Of a stretch of DNA of 64,000 bases, positions 18,001 through 27,000 are shown piece by piece; within the stretch, counting starts at the first letter, position 1; each line of letters opens with the position of its first letter. Origin of the DNA: Nitrospiraceae bacterium. GTDB lineage: Bacteria > Nitrospirota > Nitrospiria > Nitrospirales > Nitrospiraceae. The stretch covers positions 224,001-288,000 of the forward strand of contig JBFWWG010000003.1 in NCBI GenBank assembly GCA_050246315.1, written 5' to 3'. Position numbers: made by a program.

Positions 18001-21000
18001 CGAAGATCTCATGATCGGGGTGCTCGCCGCGCTCGACGTGGCTGACGCTCATCGTGGTATTGGTGCTGGTGGTCCGGCAGGTCATGGGAAAGTCCTTACG
18101 CCGCTGGCAAATGAGAATGACTCTCTACGGAGCTGATCGCTATGTTTACCGGCATCGTTGAAGAAATGGGCGCAGTCACCTCGATCGAGAAGTCGCTCGC
18201 AGGCACGCGCATGACCCTTCTGGCCTCGACCGTAATGAGCGATCTGAAGGTCGGGGATAGTGTGAGCGTCAACGGGACTTGTTTGACGGTCGTCAGCAGG
18301 GGAGAGCGGGAATTTTCAGTCGAGGTGTCGCCGGAAACACTGGCGGTCACGACGCTCGGTCGATTGACAGCCGGAGCGCCGGTCAACCTCGAACGGGCCA
18401 TGAGATTGAACGAACGGCTCGGCGGGCACATGGTCGCGGGGCATGTGGACGGTATCGGGACGATTCTCGCCCGACTGCCCGACAGCAACGCGATCATCCT
18501 GGAATGCGAAGCGCCCAAGGAGGTCCTGCGCTATTGCGTGCCGAAGGGCTCGATCACGGTCGATGGCATCAGTCTGACGATCAATCAGGTCACCGACCGG
18601 TCCTTCGCCGTTGCGATCATCCCACACACGGCCAATGTCACCACCTTGGGTCTTATACAAGTCGGCGATCGGGTCAACCTCGAATCAGACTTGATCGGCA
18701 AGTACGTCGAGCGGCTCTTGCAGGAACGCGGCGTGCTCCCCACCAAACCGGCCCCCCCCATCGATGTGGACTATCTCAAGAAACGCGGATTGATTTGATC
18801 GTCCTTCGACTCAAGCCGAATTGACAGCGCTGATATAGACGTATATCCTCACGTATATACGTCCACCCCAGAGAGGCGCTGCCATGGCCAAAAAGACCAC
18901 TCGGTTGTTCTTCAGCGGGAATAGCCAGGCCGTCCGCATTCCGAAAGAGTTTCAGATGGAAGGCGATGAGGTCGAGATCCAGCGCAGGGGCAACACCCTT
19001 GTGCTCCGCCCCATGAAAAAGTCCTGGGCAGCGTTGACCGATAGCTTGAAGAACTTTACGCGAGACTTTATGGAAAGCGGACGGCAGCAGCCCCTCTCAC
19101 AGAAACGGAAGCGGCCCTTTTCATGAAGGTGATGCTGGACACCAACATCTGCATCTATCTCATCAAGAAGCAACCTCCTTCCGTGCTGGAACGTTTCACG
19201 GACCATCCGGTCGGCGACATCGGCATCTCGGTCATCACATTGGCAGAACTCGAATACGGTGCGAGCAAGAGCCGGCATCCGCTGCGAAATCGGCTGGCCC
19301 TTTACCAATTCATTACGCCACTGGAAGTGGCTGACCTCGATCGGAATGCAGCGACCACCTATGGAAGACTCCGTGCTTCTCTAGAGACCAAGGGCACAGT
19401 CGTCGGAGCAATGGACCTCTTGATCGCTGCCCACGCGATCTGCCTGGGAGTCAAGCTGGTGACCAACAATGTACGGGAGTTTCAGCGAATCCCTGGATTG
19501 CGAGTGGACAATTGGGTGTCGTGACCGACAACAGAGGCTGAAACGGTGCTCATCACTATGAAGATCCAATCAGTGACCTATAACAACCGCAAAACGGCGT
19601 TTCAGGTGAGAGGGTCCAAGAAGTCAATGCTGCTTCCCTATTCGAAGGTCGATCCTCAACCCAGTGCCGACGATCCCATTGCCAAGCTCTACGTGGACAG
19701 GGAGCTTGGGCGGGAAGGGTTCACCTATGTGTTGGCCTCGGGCAAAGAAGGGACCGTCCATAGTGAGCAGGTCCTGGAGTACAACCAGGATCCGAACTAT
19801 CTAGCCCGCATTATTCATGACGATGCGTCACGAAATGGCGGAGTCGCATGGCGAGACGGGCGTGCGGAGCCGCAAGGAAGGGAGGCAGACTTGAAACAGT
19901 CTGTTGACCGACCGAGCGGCGAGTCCGCCAGCCTGCACACCATGGACCCCGTGCGCAGGCTTGTCGCAGCGGCGAATCCGTCATTGCAGTAGAAACGTTC
20001 ATGAATATTGCGGACCAGGAGATGCCTTGTTGCATAAGTTGACGGACGAGGCGCAACGACGAACGAAGGTCAGTCCTTTATCAAAGCGTGAGATGATCCG
20101 CAGGCTCGGGACCTCCGCCACGCAACTCTATCGCTTGCTCGACCAGACCAACTACCGCAAGTCGATCGACCAACTCTTGGCCCTGCTGCACATATTGGAT
20201 TGCGATGTCGATGTACTCGTGCGAACAAAACGCTCGCCGAGCAAGGCCGTCTAATCTCCGAAGGCACGGGCAGTGAGAGAGCACGACGATTTCTCAAGAT
20301 TGAAGGGACGTAGGAATCCCTATATCCTGTCGTTGAAGCAGCCGATTACGATGGGACTGGGCGACTGTCGAAAACAGGCATCCGTGAAGAGGACAAGGAA
20401 GACATCTGGTCGGGCTCCGTTCGTGAGCGCTAAGTAGATGGCTTCATAAGTCAATTCTCATGCCTGACCCTCTACTCTGCTCCTCTACTCTGCTCATGAC
20501 CCTCTACTCTGCTCCGAGCAAGGCCGCGTGATATCTGTAGGCGGATGAAGCGGAAGGGGACATCAGGAGAGGAGGCGGATCAACTGGGGAGCGACGCGGG
20601 AGCTGATACTCGGCGAGGAATGGCGCTCTGTGGACTATCGAGGAAACTCGCGATCGGGGCCGTCGGCTTTCGCCAATCGGCCCCGATCGCGCCACCCCAG
20701 GCCCTCTCTTCGGCGTTCCCGCGTCGGCGAGAGGCCGGGAAGCAGGCTCATGGACACCCGCTGCCTCACCCGGCCTGTCCGTGAACAGACCGGCTCCGGG
20801 CCGGCCAGAGCCGTGCGGGCGGACTGGACAAGACGGAATCCCAGGTTGTTGTTCCGGTTGTCGGCATTGTTCCTGTTCCGGTTCGACGCACGGAGGTTCT
20901 CCGGTTTGTTGTTCCAGGACCCGCCGCGGATCACACGCTGGCCGTCTTGTGGCCCGCTCCCCTTGTGAACACGGCCTGGGAGAAGATCGCTCTGCGTAGA

Positions 21001-24000: not shown

Positions 24001-27000
24001 CTCACGGAAGACGATGAAAAATTCTTCAAACTGGTCGACAAAGACGACGAGTCGAATTTTCCTATCTTCGACGATTTTCGTGAGAAACCCATGGAGTTCC
24101 TTAGGCTGTCCGTCGACATTGAGTTCCTTCGACACGGCATCTTGGATCGAGGTGACGGGATTGCTTTCCAGTCTGGTATGGATGGTCTTATAGCCGAGCT
24201 TTTCGAGTTCCGGCCTGACCCCTGCGTTGATCAAGGACGTCTTGCCTGAGCCGGAAGGAGAAAATAAGACGAGCAGCCGTGAGGAAAGCACCTCGCCAAC
24301 CATTTTTTGAACTTCCTGCTCCCGTCCAAAAAACAAGTCCGCATCCTCAAGGCGGTAGTAATCCAGATATCGATAGGGAGACCTGACGGGTGTATCGTTC
24401 ACGGGGTCCTACGAATTCCGAGTTGGGGAACGTCGAGGGTAAACTTCACGGCAACTTTTCTGGCAAATTCGGTTAGGTCTTCGTCGAAGATCTGTATATT
24501 TCGTCGCAACCAGTATGATCGAATGAAATGCGACGGGCTCTTCATGAGGGCATAGGCCGTGATGGCTCTTGATCTCGCGGTTTGCGTGGAGAGCACCCCC
24601 TCCCAGATCACGCGAAAGTTCCAATCTTCGAGACTGTATCCCAGGAACAAGAGACTGCATTGTGGGATTACTTGCTTGCGGAAATATTCAGGCATTCCCT
24701 TATCGATGTCGGTCAGATTTGCCAAGTATTGAATGTAGTCCGATTGGGTAATGACAAGACTTTCGGGATCTTCGATCGTGCCATGCATCTTATGCATAAC
24801 GAGTTCTCGGTCGCGAAACTGGAATGGCCCCCTAAAATGACCGGTCCTTGGATCCAGCGGCTTATGGACATGCTTGGTCAGAATCCGACCTTGTGACGTA
24901 AGTGCAGTCTCCAAAAGCGTGTCGTAATTTGATGTCAGAATGATCTTGATGTGGTTCAGTTGGGAGAGCACAGTGTGGATGGGCCGTGGCTGACAAGGTA
25001 CCTGAAGCTGCTGCTGCAAAGCGCTTTCCAGCGGCTGTCTGTTGCCTCCATGGAAATAGACATGGTGCTCAGCGACTTTGGCAAGATCATAGGCCCCGTT
25101 TGCATATTGGCACTGTGCAGCTAAGACCTTTGCCAGCTCACCTCCGGTAGGAAGACCAGGATTCTGCGCTCCGTCTGTCCCAGGGTAAGCCGTGCAGGCG
25201 CCCGCACCCAGGAATACCACGCATTGTTGAGATTCAAGGGCGGTGAAGATGATGCTGAGATCCTGGTCAGCCAGCCCATTCATCACGGGACTCGCAACGG
25301 CTCTCGTTCGGTGAATCTGCTTTGGTTTTCATTGGGGGCATTGGAGATAGCTGTAGATGAGGCTGGACGAGTCGCTGGAGCAACTGAACGGCTGTCCCCA
25401 CACCAGCACCTCACAGATATGAGGTACGATCATTTCATACCACTGTGGCCAGCGCGTAGGCAGGTCAACGAATTATCTGCATCTGCCGATTGGGAGTCAA
25501 GCCAGCCGACTCATGGTTTCGACGAAATACATGTATTTCCGAAAGGTGACACGGTCGATCGGACGGGTCGTGCGGTCCAATGCCATTCTTAGTAGAATTT
25601 GCGAAGCGGTTTCCACCGTGAGCCCTGTCCAATTCTCCTCCTCACGAGGGTTCTCGGACGTGGGAGTAAACAGGGTAGTAAGAATGGGATATTCTGATTT
25701 TCTGACCGTGACCATTCGCTGTTCGTCTCCGGCAAACTAGAATGTCCTCAAGTTAGCCGGCTGGAACGGATGCGCGGTGAGGTTGGAGCGACGGCAGGAC
25801 CTGCCGTGATAGAGACGGGCGGTCACTGTTCGCGGCATCATGGCGCGACCGAACCCGTGCACCATTCGTCAGCCGACCACCTTTAGTCTTCCAGCGTCGA
25901 AATATCCCCCGCGTACGGGCCTTGGCCTCAGCAGGTGATTCAGCAAGTGCCCGTGACTCCACCGGCGGCTTCACGATAGTTGCATTTTTGCAATTGTTGT
26001 CGGATAGTGAATGTTAGGAGAACGGAGTATGAAATTCACGGTCACCATTACGCGAGACGAAGACGGGATGTTCATTTCCGAATGCCCGGCTATTCCAGGC
26101 TGCGTCAGTCAAGGCAAGACGGAAGAGGAAGCGCAGTCGAACATTCAGGACGCCATCAAACAATGTTTGGAAGTCCGTGCTGAGATGGGCATGCCGCTCA
26201 CCATCACCACACGCCAAGTCGAAGTTCCGGTGTAATGCCGCCTCCTCCTGTTCTTTCTCCCGCAGCAGTCATCAAGACCTTCGAGCGACTCGGTTGGCGA
26301 GTGGTTCGACAGAAAGGCAGTCATATCATCATGACAAAATCCGGCCACATTGCCACCCTGTCGATTCCTAATCATTCAGAAGTTGCGCGAGGCACGCTTC
26401 GCACCCTGATCTCCAGAGCAGGGTTGACGGTGGAACAGTTTATCGAAGTCCTACAGAGGGACTGAGCGGTAAGCCCGCCGGCTGAATGGGTCATAGGAAG
26501 GGTGGCCAAATCGGAGGCAGACATATGGCTAACCGAATTCGGAAGCTCCAAATGAAGGAAGTTCCGCTTTCTGAGGTGAAGGATGATCTGTCGCACCTGC
26601 TTCGCGAGGCAGAGAAGCAGGAGATCGTGATTACCCGGTATGGCAAACCTGCCGGGGTCCTGATCGGATTCAAGTCCGAAGACGACTGGTTCGATTATCC
26701 ACTTGAGAACGACCCACGGTTCCTTCGGCGTATCGAGGCCGCGCGGGAAAGTTTGCGCACAGGCCGCGGCGTCAAGCTCGAAGATGTAAAGGGACGGTGA
26801 GCGGGTGGGGGAATCTCGATTGCGCCCATCGAACGAGCACTGCCCGACACTGACAATTCAAATTGATCCCGCCGGCGCGTTCTGGGAACAAAGAATAGGC
26901 ACACTTCCTCGTCCAAGCTTGCTGATGTTTTCTCGGCTGGAACGGATGCGCGGGGAGGGCGGCGCCATGGCAGAGGGTGCCGCTCGGCCAGCCTCAGCAA

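Follow-up and report, generated by a model that had tools for sequence, protein, structure and literature searches.

What does a gene for an NTPase with a C-terminal lectin-like domain do beside a reverse transcriptase, and does the same template rewrite genes elsewhere in the genome? This question is raised by a locus of Nitrospiraceae bacterium GCA_050246315.1 (contig JBFWWG010000003.1), which the initial annotation had read as part of a network of TIR- or SIR2-linked antigen sensors, diversified by two diversity-generating retroelements (DGRs), partly in trans and still actively. The window, i.e. the whole stretch of DNA analysed, comprises 64,000 nt (contig positions 224,001-288,000, forward strand); locus coordinates are window positions, and C3, C4, C5, C14 and C18 are contig labels, the window being on C3. 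The minus strand encodes, within 20640-25286, a SIR2 protein, an nSTAND1-lectin target, bAvd, a reverse transcriptase (RT), a 121-nt template repeat and a structured RNA. From 5′ to 3′ on that strand, the features are:

25472..25500, minus strand: candidate sigma-70-like promoter TTGACT-17-GATAAT, 190 nt ahead of the SIR2 gene (pattern scan)
24399..25286, minus strand: SIR2-domain protein, 295 aa (Pfam SIR2_2, E 3.5e-25)
22483..24402, minus strand: DGR target, 639 aa (Pfam nSTAND1, E 1e-52, and FGE-sulfatase, E 8e-47)
23209..23265, minus strand: predicted membrane helix LLSAGLILALVGLPVAFLW of the target (Kyte-Doolittle hydropathy and model)
22498..22618, minus strand: variable repeat (VR), target aa 595-635 (17/17 mismatches to TR1 at template adenines)
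22441-22482, minus strand: CCTTT-type repeats ahead of the hairpin (DNA fold, flank alignment)
22400..22440, minus strand: GC-rich 18-bp hairpin, ~57 nt behind the VR (DNA fold, flank alignment)
22010..22366, minus strand: bAvd accessory protein, 118 aa (Pfam bAvd, E 9e-17; NCBIfam DivGenRetAVD)
20931..22013, minus strand: DGR reverse transcriptase, 360 aa, with YVDD and IGNLTSQ motifs (Pfam RVT_1, E 8e-19)
20824..20944, minus strand: template repeat TR1, 121 nt, overlapping the final 14 nt of the RT gene (direct repeat with the VR)
20640..20823, minus strand: structured RNA element, ~185 nt, directly 3′ of TR1 (covariation, conservation)

These parts form a single operon-like unit on the minus strand, running from SIR2 through the nSTAND1-helix-lectin receptor, bAvd, RT and TR1 to the structured RNA, and the SIR2 stop overlaps the start of the target gene by 4 nt. 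The promoter is a weak candidate, since the pattern scan returned two sites versus 2.4 expected by chance. bAvd passed the DivGenRetAVD model with 97.1 bits (cut-off 80), and the top PDB sequence match of the RT was 8ub7 ('Reverse transcriptase', E 3e-53; which we take to be the Bordetella phage enzyme), with YVDD and IGNLTSQ both aligned. Toxin-antitoxin genes surround the locus, and recognised defence systems are not among its neighbours.

TR1 and the VR are a 121-nt direct repeat of 86% identity. On the coding (minus) strand, all 17 mismatches fell on the 32 adenines of the 121-nt template (hypergeometric p = 2.6e-12; A>G 10, A>T 5, A>C 2), and none of the 89 non-adenine sites had drifted. 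Thirty of the 32 adenines are the first or second base of a codon, 12 codons are of the AAY type, and the 19 variable codons allow ∼10^17.7 possible proteins. Among 28 TR/VR pairs from 21 related loci, 13 showed adenine-site mismatches only, and one more (L016) showed none at all, its VR being identical to the template over 115 nt. We are therefore all but certain that the window cassette is a genuine DGR with an nSTAND1-lectin target. The earlier gene calls (bAvd, RVT_1, SIR2_2 and the STAND plus FGE/lectin target) were reproduced by the Pfam matches, as was the count of 17 TR1/VR mismatches confined to template adenines.

The RNA element was also found behind TR2, the template of the DGR on C5, behind an orphan third template (TR3) and in 16 related loci. 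Of the 37 pairs predicted by RNAalifold, 15 show compensatory changes, and at a single pair as many as 11 of the 19 sequences had both partners replaced; no Rfam family matched. Within the DGR RNA, this element presumably provides the site where the RT/Avd complex binds and primes. The BPP-1 DGR (mtd-avd-TR-brt), too, has a structured RNA 3′ of its template, a spacer region with a role in priming. The window further shares with BPP-1 and with TvpA of Treponema denticola the RT motifs, Avd, adenine-specific mutagenesis and a C-terminal VR on a C-type-lectin fold. Unlike in those systems, its order is target-avd-RT-TR, its target is a signalling NTPase rather than a tail fibre or lipoprotein, and one template appears to serve more than one locus.

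The target comprises an nSTAND1 NTPase (aa 9-367), a hydrophobic helix (aa 380-398) and an FGE/C-type-lectin-fold domain with the VR (aa 420-634). Its translation contains the Walker A motif GSGKTS and DQFEEFF, both invariant among relatives. An AlphaFold2 model of the lectin part, aa 375-639 (pLDDT 84.9), matched PvdO, FGE and the DGR variable protein TvpA (2y3c, E 8e-15) in Foldseek. The helix was modelled within a 36-residue helix and is the sole target segment with a Kyte-Doolittle mean above 1.6 (2.29 over 19 residues); a comparable helix is present in four of the five targets of the genome, in 4/4 Nitrospira-lineage relatives and also in HEAT-type relatives. Judging from hydropathy and this one model, the receptor is most likely a single-pass membrane protein, with a cytoplasmic NTPase and a periplasmic hypervariable lectin.

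The SIR2 protein matched the PADLOC ThsA model (E 2e-23, residues 14-252) and, by sequence, the SIR2 domains of ThsA, KomC and DSR2 in the PDB, and its N120-Y-D and H168-G are invariant across seven homologues; it appears to be a bare ThsA-like NADase domain. Of 79 metagenome loci retrieved with the target, 18 had a SIR2 homologue adjoining a STAND homologue, the 4-nt gene overlap was common to five of the ten closest loci, and fused SIR2_2-nSTAND1-FGE proteins occur (P0205, P0208). Like Thoeris ThsA, DSR1/DSR2 and SIR2-fused Avs-type STANDs, the locus combines a ThsA-like SIR2 with conserved N and H and a sensor expected to trigger NAD+ depletion. It differs from them in that the 295-aa SIR2 is free-standing, with neither a SLOG/STALD domain nor ThsB, the STAND protein matched none of the PADLOC models, and the sensor is hypermutated, not germline-fixed.

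Regarding the origin of the receptor, its best homologues (47-58% identity) covered only 57-64% of the query and were nSTAND1 plus HEAT proteins; nSTAND1 plus FGE proteins covering 97-99% of the target reached only 32-36% identity. GC content is 52% in the SIR2 and STAND part versus 58-61% in lectin, avd and RT (SIR2 gene 51.8%, genome 59.7%). Across 200 further genomes from the family, a SIR2 homologue was found in none and an RT homologue in 15, a tally that includes an unpublished genome (G006). By these comparisons, the target appears to be a chimera, in which a horizontally acquired SIR2, nSTAND1 and helix module, with HEAT repeats elsewhere, was joined to a resident lectin/Avd/RT/TR cassette.

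In the mechanism that we propose, the RT/Avd complex would copy TR1 RNA into cDNA while misreading adenines, and this cDNA would take the place of the 121-nt VR in the 3′-terminal part of the receptor gene, so that as many as 19 codons for the ligand-binding face of the lectin fold are randomised anew. Ligand binding would then make the NTPase oligomerise, which in turn would activate the SIR2 NADase, the product of a separate gene; the cell would lose NAD+ and stop growing or die. We consider this explanation as a whole (DGR receptor, trans rewriting, chimera and SIR2-coupled sensing) probable; for the NADase-coupled sensing role of the SIR2/STAND pair, the balance tips slightly in favour.

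Related systems have been described. The NTPase-FGS conflict systems with associated DGRs, as presented in parts of Kaur, Burroughs, Iyer, Aravind 2021 (eLife 10:e70394, PMC8195603), where the nSTAND1 clade was defined, likewise combine an effector (N-terminal in their case; TIR and others), a central NTPase and a C-terminal FGS diversified by an RT and a four-helix accessory protein. In the window, by contrast, the effector is a separate SIR2 gene, neither protein has a recognisable adaptor domain, a hydrophobic helix lies between NTPase and lectin, and the STAND part stems from a SIR2-linked HEAT-repeat lineage; SIR2 is not on the effector list given there for NTPase-FGS systems. Passages of Doré et al. 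2024 (PNAS 121:e2316469121, PMC10907252) describe DGR-diversified STAND 'antigen sensors' in hosts of clade-5 DGRs, among them Thiohalocapsa PB-PSB1, and Datasets S3 and S6 of that paper include, for Nitrospira marina Nb-295, a clade-5 DGR RT whose neighbours encode FGE and TIR_2. As such NTPase-lectin sensors, including trans and nSTAND1-lectin targets, are thus in print, the novelty initially claimed for a nitrite oxidiser shrinks to the SIR2 partner, which we did not find in print and which is absent from the main text and nine supplementary files of Doré 2024, and the window becomes a well-documented new example with a few new twists. Besides the SIR2 partner of a DGR-diversified STAND-lectin receptor, the new observations are the chimeric receptor and, as set out below, decayed sister cassettes, VR-only natural alleles and a paralogue explanation of contig variation, in addition to the covarying RNA element behind each template.

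Instead of sensing phage or antigens, the receptors could be diversified for a different function outside the cytoplasm, for example recognition of kin or neighbours, controlled death in microcolonies or the binding of variable environmental ligands. This would agree with a lectin that is probably periplasmic in four of the five targets, which sets them apart from characterised Avs proteins, whose sensors are cytosolic, with a STAND protein outside known defence models, with a toxin-antitoxin rather than a defence neighbourhood and with the classical role of cell-surface DGR lectins in adhesion or receptor binding (Kaur 2020, in part). We nevertheless regard it as somewhat unlikely, because a SIR2 or TIR NADase with a STAND NTPase is a standard set of abortive-infection parts (PADLOC ThsA-type; ThsA, DSR2 and KomC in the PDB), and an invader-sensing role has been argued for the same architecture in sections of Kaur 2021 (PMC8195603) and Doré 2024 (PMC10907252). 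That the SIR2 protein is activated and that the system acts in immunity or conflict are inferences, as is the label 'antigen sensor' for the DGR targets.

Globally, the genome contains six sister cassettes, of which two are intact (C3 and C5) and four lack Avd and RT yet retain a VR and its 3′ flank. The adenine and other counts previously given for the second DGR and three remote repeats were all recovered: TR1 versus C14:41788-41908 (TIR_2 plus FGE target, 470 aa), 18 A and 0 other; TR2 (C5:68718-68838) versus C4:22024-22137 (TIR-nSTAND1-FGE, 869 aa), 14 A and 0 other; TR2 versus C18:30408-30522 (DUF4062-nSTAND1-FGE, 905 aa), 15 A and 4 other; and TR2 versus its own neighbouring VR on C5, 18 A and 8 other. 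The last two pairs are thus unclean. C14 and C4 do fit a remote template (0/89 and 0/82 non-adenine sites differing from TR1 and TR2, respectively), and the local TR3, behind the C14 TIR-lectin gene, differs from that VR at 15 non-adenine positions. The remote targets are not the free-standing genes that they had seemed to be: they are decayed sister cassettes. The C4 target is followed by an 82-nt remnant of an RT gene, the one at C14:18.8k by Avd codons 1-31, and the C14 TIR-lectin by TR3. Decay occurred via deletion or replacement by a BrnT toxin module, not via transposons as at the loci in the portions of Doré 2024 concerned. The hairpin, which may be a homing element or terminator, is conserved behind the VRs on C3, C5 and C4 and weaker behind C18 and C14:18.8k; flank alignment revealed none behind the C14 TIR-lectin VR.

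In public assemblies, the C14, C4 and C5 targets each occur as a second allele, differing by 12, 10 and 13 residues, respectively, all within the VR and all at template-adenine codons, with no differences over the other 458, 859 and 949 residues, which supports diversification in trans. TR1 fits 40/40 codons of both C14 alleles, TR2 fails at two and TR3 at eight. Both natural C5 alleles retain two codons that TR2 cannot give, which, together with the eight non-adenine mismatches, indicates that template and VR are sometimes out of step. In an alternative strain, a different Avd/RT module (93-94% identity) follows a C5 target identical outside the VR, indicating that modules are exchanged.

Alternatively, the remote repeats could be fossils of autonomous cassettes, or VR alleles moved by homologous recombination, with the alleles having arisen in cis in RT-bearing strains; indeed, the alternative alleles could stem from strains whose cassettes are still intact. 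The debris at all remote targets, the C14 target without a hairpin, the module swap and the intact structural variants that part of Doré 2024 (PMC10907252) notes for some 'incomplete' loci would all be in line with this. C3 and C14 also share a 220-nt tract reaching ∼100 nt past the 5′ end of the template, so the cassettes recombine and VR alleles could move thereby. Against recombination, however, the C3 and C14 VRs differ at none of the 89 non-adenine sites versus nine differences in the adjoining 100 nt (Fisher's p = 0.004), which implies that homogenisation reached the VR later than the flank, and the 3′ border of identity is the exact end of the template. The C4 VR equals TR2 at all eight sites where the C5 VR departs from it and is therefore no copy of the C5 VR, and the C14 alleles fit TR1 rather than their local TR3. 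An origin in cis or by recombination is thus unlikely, and we think it likely that at least the C14 TIR-lectin and C4 TIR-nSTAND1-lectin are still being rewritten in trans, from TR1 and TR2, respectively.

Of the proposed sensor network, the two intact DGRs of one lineage and the TIR-, SIR2- or DUF4062-linked STAND or TIR targets with a C-terminal lectin-fold VR stood; the contig variation cited for activity at the window VR did not. When contigs of four runs from four studies were aligned at 80% likeness, six of the seven best-supported 'other letters' inside this VR lay at template-adenine places, all six being letters of the paralogous C5 VR, and the contig break at 22618 is expected from 42 nt common to C3 and C14 at k = 31. 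Paralogues thus account for this variation, and it does not demonstrate variation of the window VR. For the window target, no second allele was found in public assemblies, the 90% cluster had one member and no short fragment exceeded 64% identity; none of the 20 runs holding the locus is RNA. These negative results, and L016, whose identical repeats show that such cassettes can stay unmutated, would fit a DGR that is intact in sequence yet silent now, its 17 adenine-site differences reflecting past activity only, but we consider this quite improbable, as all parts are intact without drift at the 89 non-adenine sites and the trans target on C14, dependent on TR1 and an RT, has two natural alleles. 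Activity at the window's own VR today would be in keeping with these observations. Pointing weakly in the same direction, because contigs drop or break for other reasons as well, exact strain contigs end on both sides of the window VR in 4/4 runs, and in run X12 VR places 22532 and 22544 lack the reference letter in every contig, with exact flanks at a depth of 70-90.

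Every sequence criterion applied to the window locus argues for a genuine and intact diversity-generating retroelement (DGR) with a well-supported target. Its parts are as follows.

Parts of the window locus (window positions; RT, reverse transcriptase; VR, variable repeat; TR, template repeat)
24399-25286, minus strand: SIR2_2 protein, 295 aa
22483-24402, minus strand: nSTAND1 + FGE-sulfatase target, 639 aa, overlapping the SIR2 gene by 4 nt
22498-22618, minus strand: VR, corresponding to aa 595-635 of the 639-aa target
22010-22366, minus strand: bAvd
20931-22013, minus strand: RT, 360 aa
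20824-20944, minus strand: TR1, 121 nt, beginning within the final codons of the RT gene

TR1 and the VR differ at 17 sites, and all 17 are template adenines (p = 2.6e-12, with 32 A among the 121 nt of TR1). These adenines fall almost entirely in codon positions 1 or 2 (30/32), 12 codons are AAC or AAT, and the 19 variable codons correspond to about 10^17.7 proteins. The RT matches RVT_1 (E 8e-19); among PDB sequences it is closest to 8ub7 (E 3e-53), and the YVDD and IGNLTSQ motifs that mark the DGR clade of RTs are aligned between the two. Its nearest relatives come from Nitrospira/Nitrospiraceae MAGs (77-83%), followed by Competibacter/Contendobacter MAGs (64-66%). The Avd protein scores 97.1 bits against NCBIfam DivGenRetAVD (cut-off 80) and is also matched by Pfam bAvd. 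In a structure model of target aa 375-639 (pLDDT 84.9), a 36-residue helix leads into an FGE/C-type-lectin fold; the fold matches are PvdO, FGE and, from Treponema, the DGR variable protein TvpA (2y3c, E 8e-15). An RT, an Avd and an adenine-confined TR/VR pair are thus found together with a VR at the C-terminus of a target whose modelled fold is that of a C-type lectin. Regarding the surroundings of the VR, no IMH/IMH* pair was definable from sequence at its 3' end. An 18-bp GC hairpin lies about 57 nt 3' of the VR; it is kept in three cassettes of this genome, weaker in two and missing behind the TIR-lectin gene on contig C14. With E values up to 1 allowed, Rfam gave only two matches in 19500-26000, both at chance level, one being the hairpin behind the VR (Antizyme_FSE, E 0.18), and a promoter and terminator scan gave counts no higher than chance.

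A genome search reproduced the second DGR reported in the initial annotation, on contig C5, where a TIR_2-nSTAND1-FGE gene (962 aa) is followed by bAvd, RT and the template TR2. The earlier mismatch counts were likewise all recovered: TR1 against the TIR_2-FGE gene on C14 (470 aa) gives 18 adenine and 0 other differences, and TR2 gives 14 and 0 against the TIR-nSTAND1-FGE gene on C4 (869 aa; over positions 8-121), 15 and 4 against the DUF4062-nSTAND1-FGE gene on C18 (905 aa), and 18 and 8 against its own C5 VR. The claim that remote VRs differ from a template only at adenines therefore stands for C14 and C4 and fails for C18. Beyond what had been noted, the genome holds six sister cassettes, two intact and four decayed. 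On C4, an 82-nt RT fragment that is 90% identical to the window RT lies behind the VR, and avd codons 1-31 follow a further degenerate VR at C14:18778-18898. The C14 TIR-lectin gene is followed by an orphan template, TR3 (C14:40478-40598; minus strand at 6478-6598 of the extracted locus L002), with a TR-specific 3' flank that includes a full conserved RNA element. The 1.19 kb between TR3 and the TIR-lectin VR (L002:6599-7787) code for a BrnT toxin (Pfam E 1.7e-18) and, probably, an antitoxin; some 1.1 kb here stand in the place of Avd and RT. TR3 was ruled out as template, as it shows at least 14 non-adenine differences to every VR of the genome. A 3' flank of CCTTT-type repeats is common to all these VRs.

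Scattered cassette parts seem common in this family: in one relative, a VR-like repeat (G191:C112:27991-28112) and the template are on separate contigs, and another carries a solitary 3' RNA element without template (G024:C1:3345987-3346165). In a related Pseudomonadota MAG (locus L016), template and VR (8072-8192 and 6449-6563) are 100% identical over 115 nt; this unmutated VR was either freshly reset or never diversified.

Evidence on activity came from natural second alleles of three targets, found in a public protein collection.

Natural second alleles of targets in the genome
C14 TIR-lectin: P0005 (fragment P0006 has the same VR); 12 residues differ, all in aa 437-459; 0/458 outside the VR
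C4 target: P0008; 10 residues differ, all in aa 836-858; 0/859 outside the VR
C5 target: P0010; 13 residues differ, all in aa 930-951; 0/949 outside the VR

Template-adenine codons make up 19-20 of the 40 VR codons and contain all 35 differing residues. Starting from TR1, adenine changes suffice to give both C14 alleles (40/40 codons), but TR2 fails at 2 codons and the local TR3 at 8, and both C4 alleles fit TR2 save for two codons ahead of the start of homology. Furthermore, the C3 (window) and C14 VRs show 0 differences at 89 non-adenine sites, as opposed to 9 across the neighbouring 100 nt (p = 0.004). Taken together, the VR-restricted alleles, the template fits and this contrast between sites are best read as rewriting in trans, with TR1 acting on C14 and TR2 on C4. 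Less likely alternative sources of these alleles are cassettes recombining with each other, or cis activity in strains whose own cassettes are intact. The alleles are good sequence evidence that two orphan targets are probably still being diversified, and with rewriting in trans as the preferred explanation, the earlier proposal of partly trans-acting DGRs is retained for these two pairs.

For the window VR, the initial annotation had drawn on contigs from public runs that break there or carry variant letters. The strain is widespread, with 95-98% of its sampled words contained in 20 runs from 7 studies. Contigs of 4 runs from 4 studies were aligned anew to the window locus at 80% likeness, a threshold that also admitted contigs of paralogous cassettes and related organisms and was too permissive to yield a usable allele spectrum. 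In all four runs, exact contigs extend over 20896-21649 and about 21630-22431 and resume at 22618 or 22684; among those listed, none spans 22432-22617. Of the VR differences listed, 6/7 fall at template-adenine places, and all six are the letters of the paralogous C5 VR. The break at 22618 is where 42 nt common to C3 and C14 would be expected to interrupt a 31-mer assembly. As both the variant letters and the break are accounted for by paralogues, the contigs do not establish activity of the window VR. The protein collection holds no second allele of the window target, whose cluster has one member, and short fragments compared with target residues 400-639 reached no more than 64% identity and so added no allele. 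Since the window-locus genes are absent from contig-derived proteins, this lack is uninformative. No near-identical metagenome contig was found for the window target either, and with the best at 56%, that route gave no strain-level comparison. The clusters of the window RT and Avd have one member each, from NCBI only, and 3/8 neighbouring-gene proteins are missing from the collection, making for a poor control for an absence of variation outside the VR.

The C5 cassette presents a puzzle of its own. Its reference VR is off TR2 at 8 non-adenine sites, and both natural C5 alleles retain two codons incompatible with TR2. The alternative target P0010, from another assembly, is identical to the reference (L001, C5:64279-68838) outside the VR, and it shares its longest contig value (5111) with two further proteins (P0136, P0139), an Avd that is 94% and an RT that is 93% identical to the reference, the RT with a 4-aa insertion; we infer that all three lie on one contig. 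An identical target with divergent Avd and RT suggests that one lineage has had its Avd-RT-TR module replaced. Such modules would then be swapped between lineages, which may explain the 8 non-adenine mismatches. A mosaic C5 VR with its 3' end taken from TR3 was rejected, the fit being limited to the last 22 nt and not significant.

About 185 nt behind TR1, TR2 and TR3 are conserved, as they are behind the templates of 16 related Nitrospira-type and Competibacter-type loci. RNAalifold predicted 37 pairs in this element, 15 of them with compensatory changes, and in one hairpin both sides changed in 5 to 11 of 19 sequences per pair. The element matched no Rfam family. In phage DGRs, the RNA region 3' of the template is bound by the RT/Avd complex and primed from; by analogy, the element is presumably the part of the DGR RNA that serves this complex for binding and priming.

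The SIR2 protein encoded upstream of the target consists of a bare ThsA-type SIR2 domain (PADLOC ThsA, E 2e-23; PDB relatives ThsA, KomC and DSR2), in which the Asn of the NYD and the His of the HG motif are conserved. A SIR2 homologue adjoins the STAND homologue in 18/79 metagenome loci retrieved with the target, and the 4-nt gene overlap recurs in 5/10 of the closest loci. Fused SIR2_2-nSTAND1-FGE-sulfatase proteins also occur in metagenomes (P0205, 1057 aa; P0208, 1021 aa). Judged by these loci, the SIR2-STAND pairing is conserved. A predicted complex of STAND aa 1-378 with SIR2 (alignment of 7 rows each; score 0.00, mark 0.32) speaks neither for nor against binding. Of the fused proteins, P0205 shows a DGR-like motif at its C-terminus and a hydrophobic segment ahead of its lectin.

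The target itself is a chimera. Its closest STAND relatives share 47-58% identity over the first 57-64% of the protein only and end in HEAT repeats, whereas full-length nSTAND1 + FGE relatives reach only 32-36%. Compared with the genome's other cassettes, the lectin half is 58-59% and the STAND half 25-36% identical. The GC content is 52% for SIR2 and the STAND part and 58-61% for lectin, avd and RT, in a genome of 59.7%. Among 200 other genomes of the family, no SIR2 homologue was found at E 1e-20 or better, and 15 have an RT homologue (a tally that includes one unpublished genome, G006). From the split in coverage and identity, the GC content and the family distribution, it is a foreign SIR2 + nSTAND1 module in which the resident DGR lectin module has taken the place of the original sensor. 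A two-gene family of SIR2 followed by nSTAND1, a hydrophobic helix and HEAT repeats, often with the 4-nt overlap, was seen at L055-L062, L065, L075 and other related loci, in records labelled KSB1, Aminicenantes and Acidobacteriota; its STAND part is not covered by a PADLOC model, and we found no description of it in the literature searched.

In 4/5 targets of the genome, C18 being the exception, a single strongly hydrophobic 19-residue segment separates the NTPase or TIR domain from the lectin. Such a segment precedes the lectin in 4/4 Nitrospira-lineage relatives versus 3/15 others, and is also present in the HEAT-type relatives. The substrates of SIR2, TIR and NTPase domains are cytoplasmic, so the lectin would face the periplasm, as judged from hydropathy and one model.

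Systems of this kind have been described. The NTPase-FGS systems of Kaur et al. 2021 (PMC8195603) combine nSTAND1 with N-terminal effectors including TIR, have a DGR nearby or elsewhere and occur in several copies per genome. Doré et al. 2024 (PMC10907252) list, in Datasets S3 and S6, a Nitrospira marina Nb-295 RT flanked by FGE and TIR_2 genes, so the earlier claim of a first case in a nitrite oxidiser does not hold. The architecture of N-terminal effector or adaptor, central STAND and C-terminal FGS/CLec was found here too: like the NTPase-FGS systems and the DGR-STAND sensors of Doré et al., the C5, C4 and C18 targets join TIR_2 or DUF4062 to nSTAND1 and FGE-sulfatase. The window copy differs in that it comprises nSTAND1 and FGE, with the SIR2 effector encoded by the upstream gene instead of being fused. 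SIR2 has 0 occurrences in the Doré et al. text and in the nine supplementary files searched, and 0 in Kaur 2020. Titles and abstracts of the literature library searched never pair it with 'diversity-generating retroelement', and where nSTAND1 and SIR2 meet in that library, SIR2 is named for a different system only. The published picture is unchanged, and the genome usefully extends it with a split-off SIR2 effector, a swapped sensor, an orphan template and a covarying RNA element. Thoeris was rejected, since the 295-aa SIR2 protein has no SLOG/STALD sensor or further domain, matches PADLOC ThsA only at profile positions 14-227 of 478 (the SIR2 part) and neighbours a STAND NTPase, not a ThsB TIR. 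Avs was rejected as well: 0 PADLOC families match the window STAND protein, and, unlike antiviral STANDs, which join effector, NTPase and cytosolic repeat sensor in one polypeptide, this protein has a separately encoded effector, a predicted membrane helix and a lectin as its sensor.

Nitrospira is a nitrite oxidiser of wastewater plants, living in dense microcolonies in which infection would spread easily. Hypermutable receptors tied to NAD-destroying effectors would be among its main conflict systems. Tentatively, and with the odds rather against it, the cassettes might form an adaptive-like repertoire, in which two RT/template units rewrite the periplasmic lectins of single-pass receptors with SIR2 + nSTAND1, TIR + nSTAND1 or bare TIR halves (the last a Toll-like-receptor-like layout), orphans are serviced in trans, and a foreign SIR2/STAND system had its germline HEAT-repeat sensor replaced by an exchangeable module. 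If true, this would mean that a bacterium senses extracellular antigens with somatically diversified transmembrane analogues of NLRs and TLRs. The replacement of HEAT repeats by a DGR lectin on SIR2 + nSTAND1 illustrates how a fixed innate sensor can turn diversifiable. With its two intact and four decayed cassettes, an orphan template, two orphan targets with VR-only alleles and evidence for swaps of Avd-RT-TR and sensor modules between cassettes, the genome is a compact natural experiment for DGR biology, contributing a clean case that lends itself to testing, and a conserved RNA element open to modelling.

A scan of the window for an integration site found no tRNA. The locus is flanked by toxin-antitoxin pairs, a MazE-type antitoxin with a PIN toxin at 18884-19524 (plus strand) and a Phd/YefM antitoxin with an unassigned 112-aa ORF at 26486-27143 (plus strand), and GC is low (50-55%) at 23000-26600 and 18800-20600. 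A 49-nt direct repeat, 80% identical, occurs at 25758-25806, upstream of the SIR2 gene, and at 26934-26982, past the Phd gene, and might bound an inserted segment.
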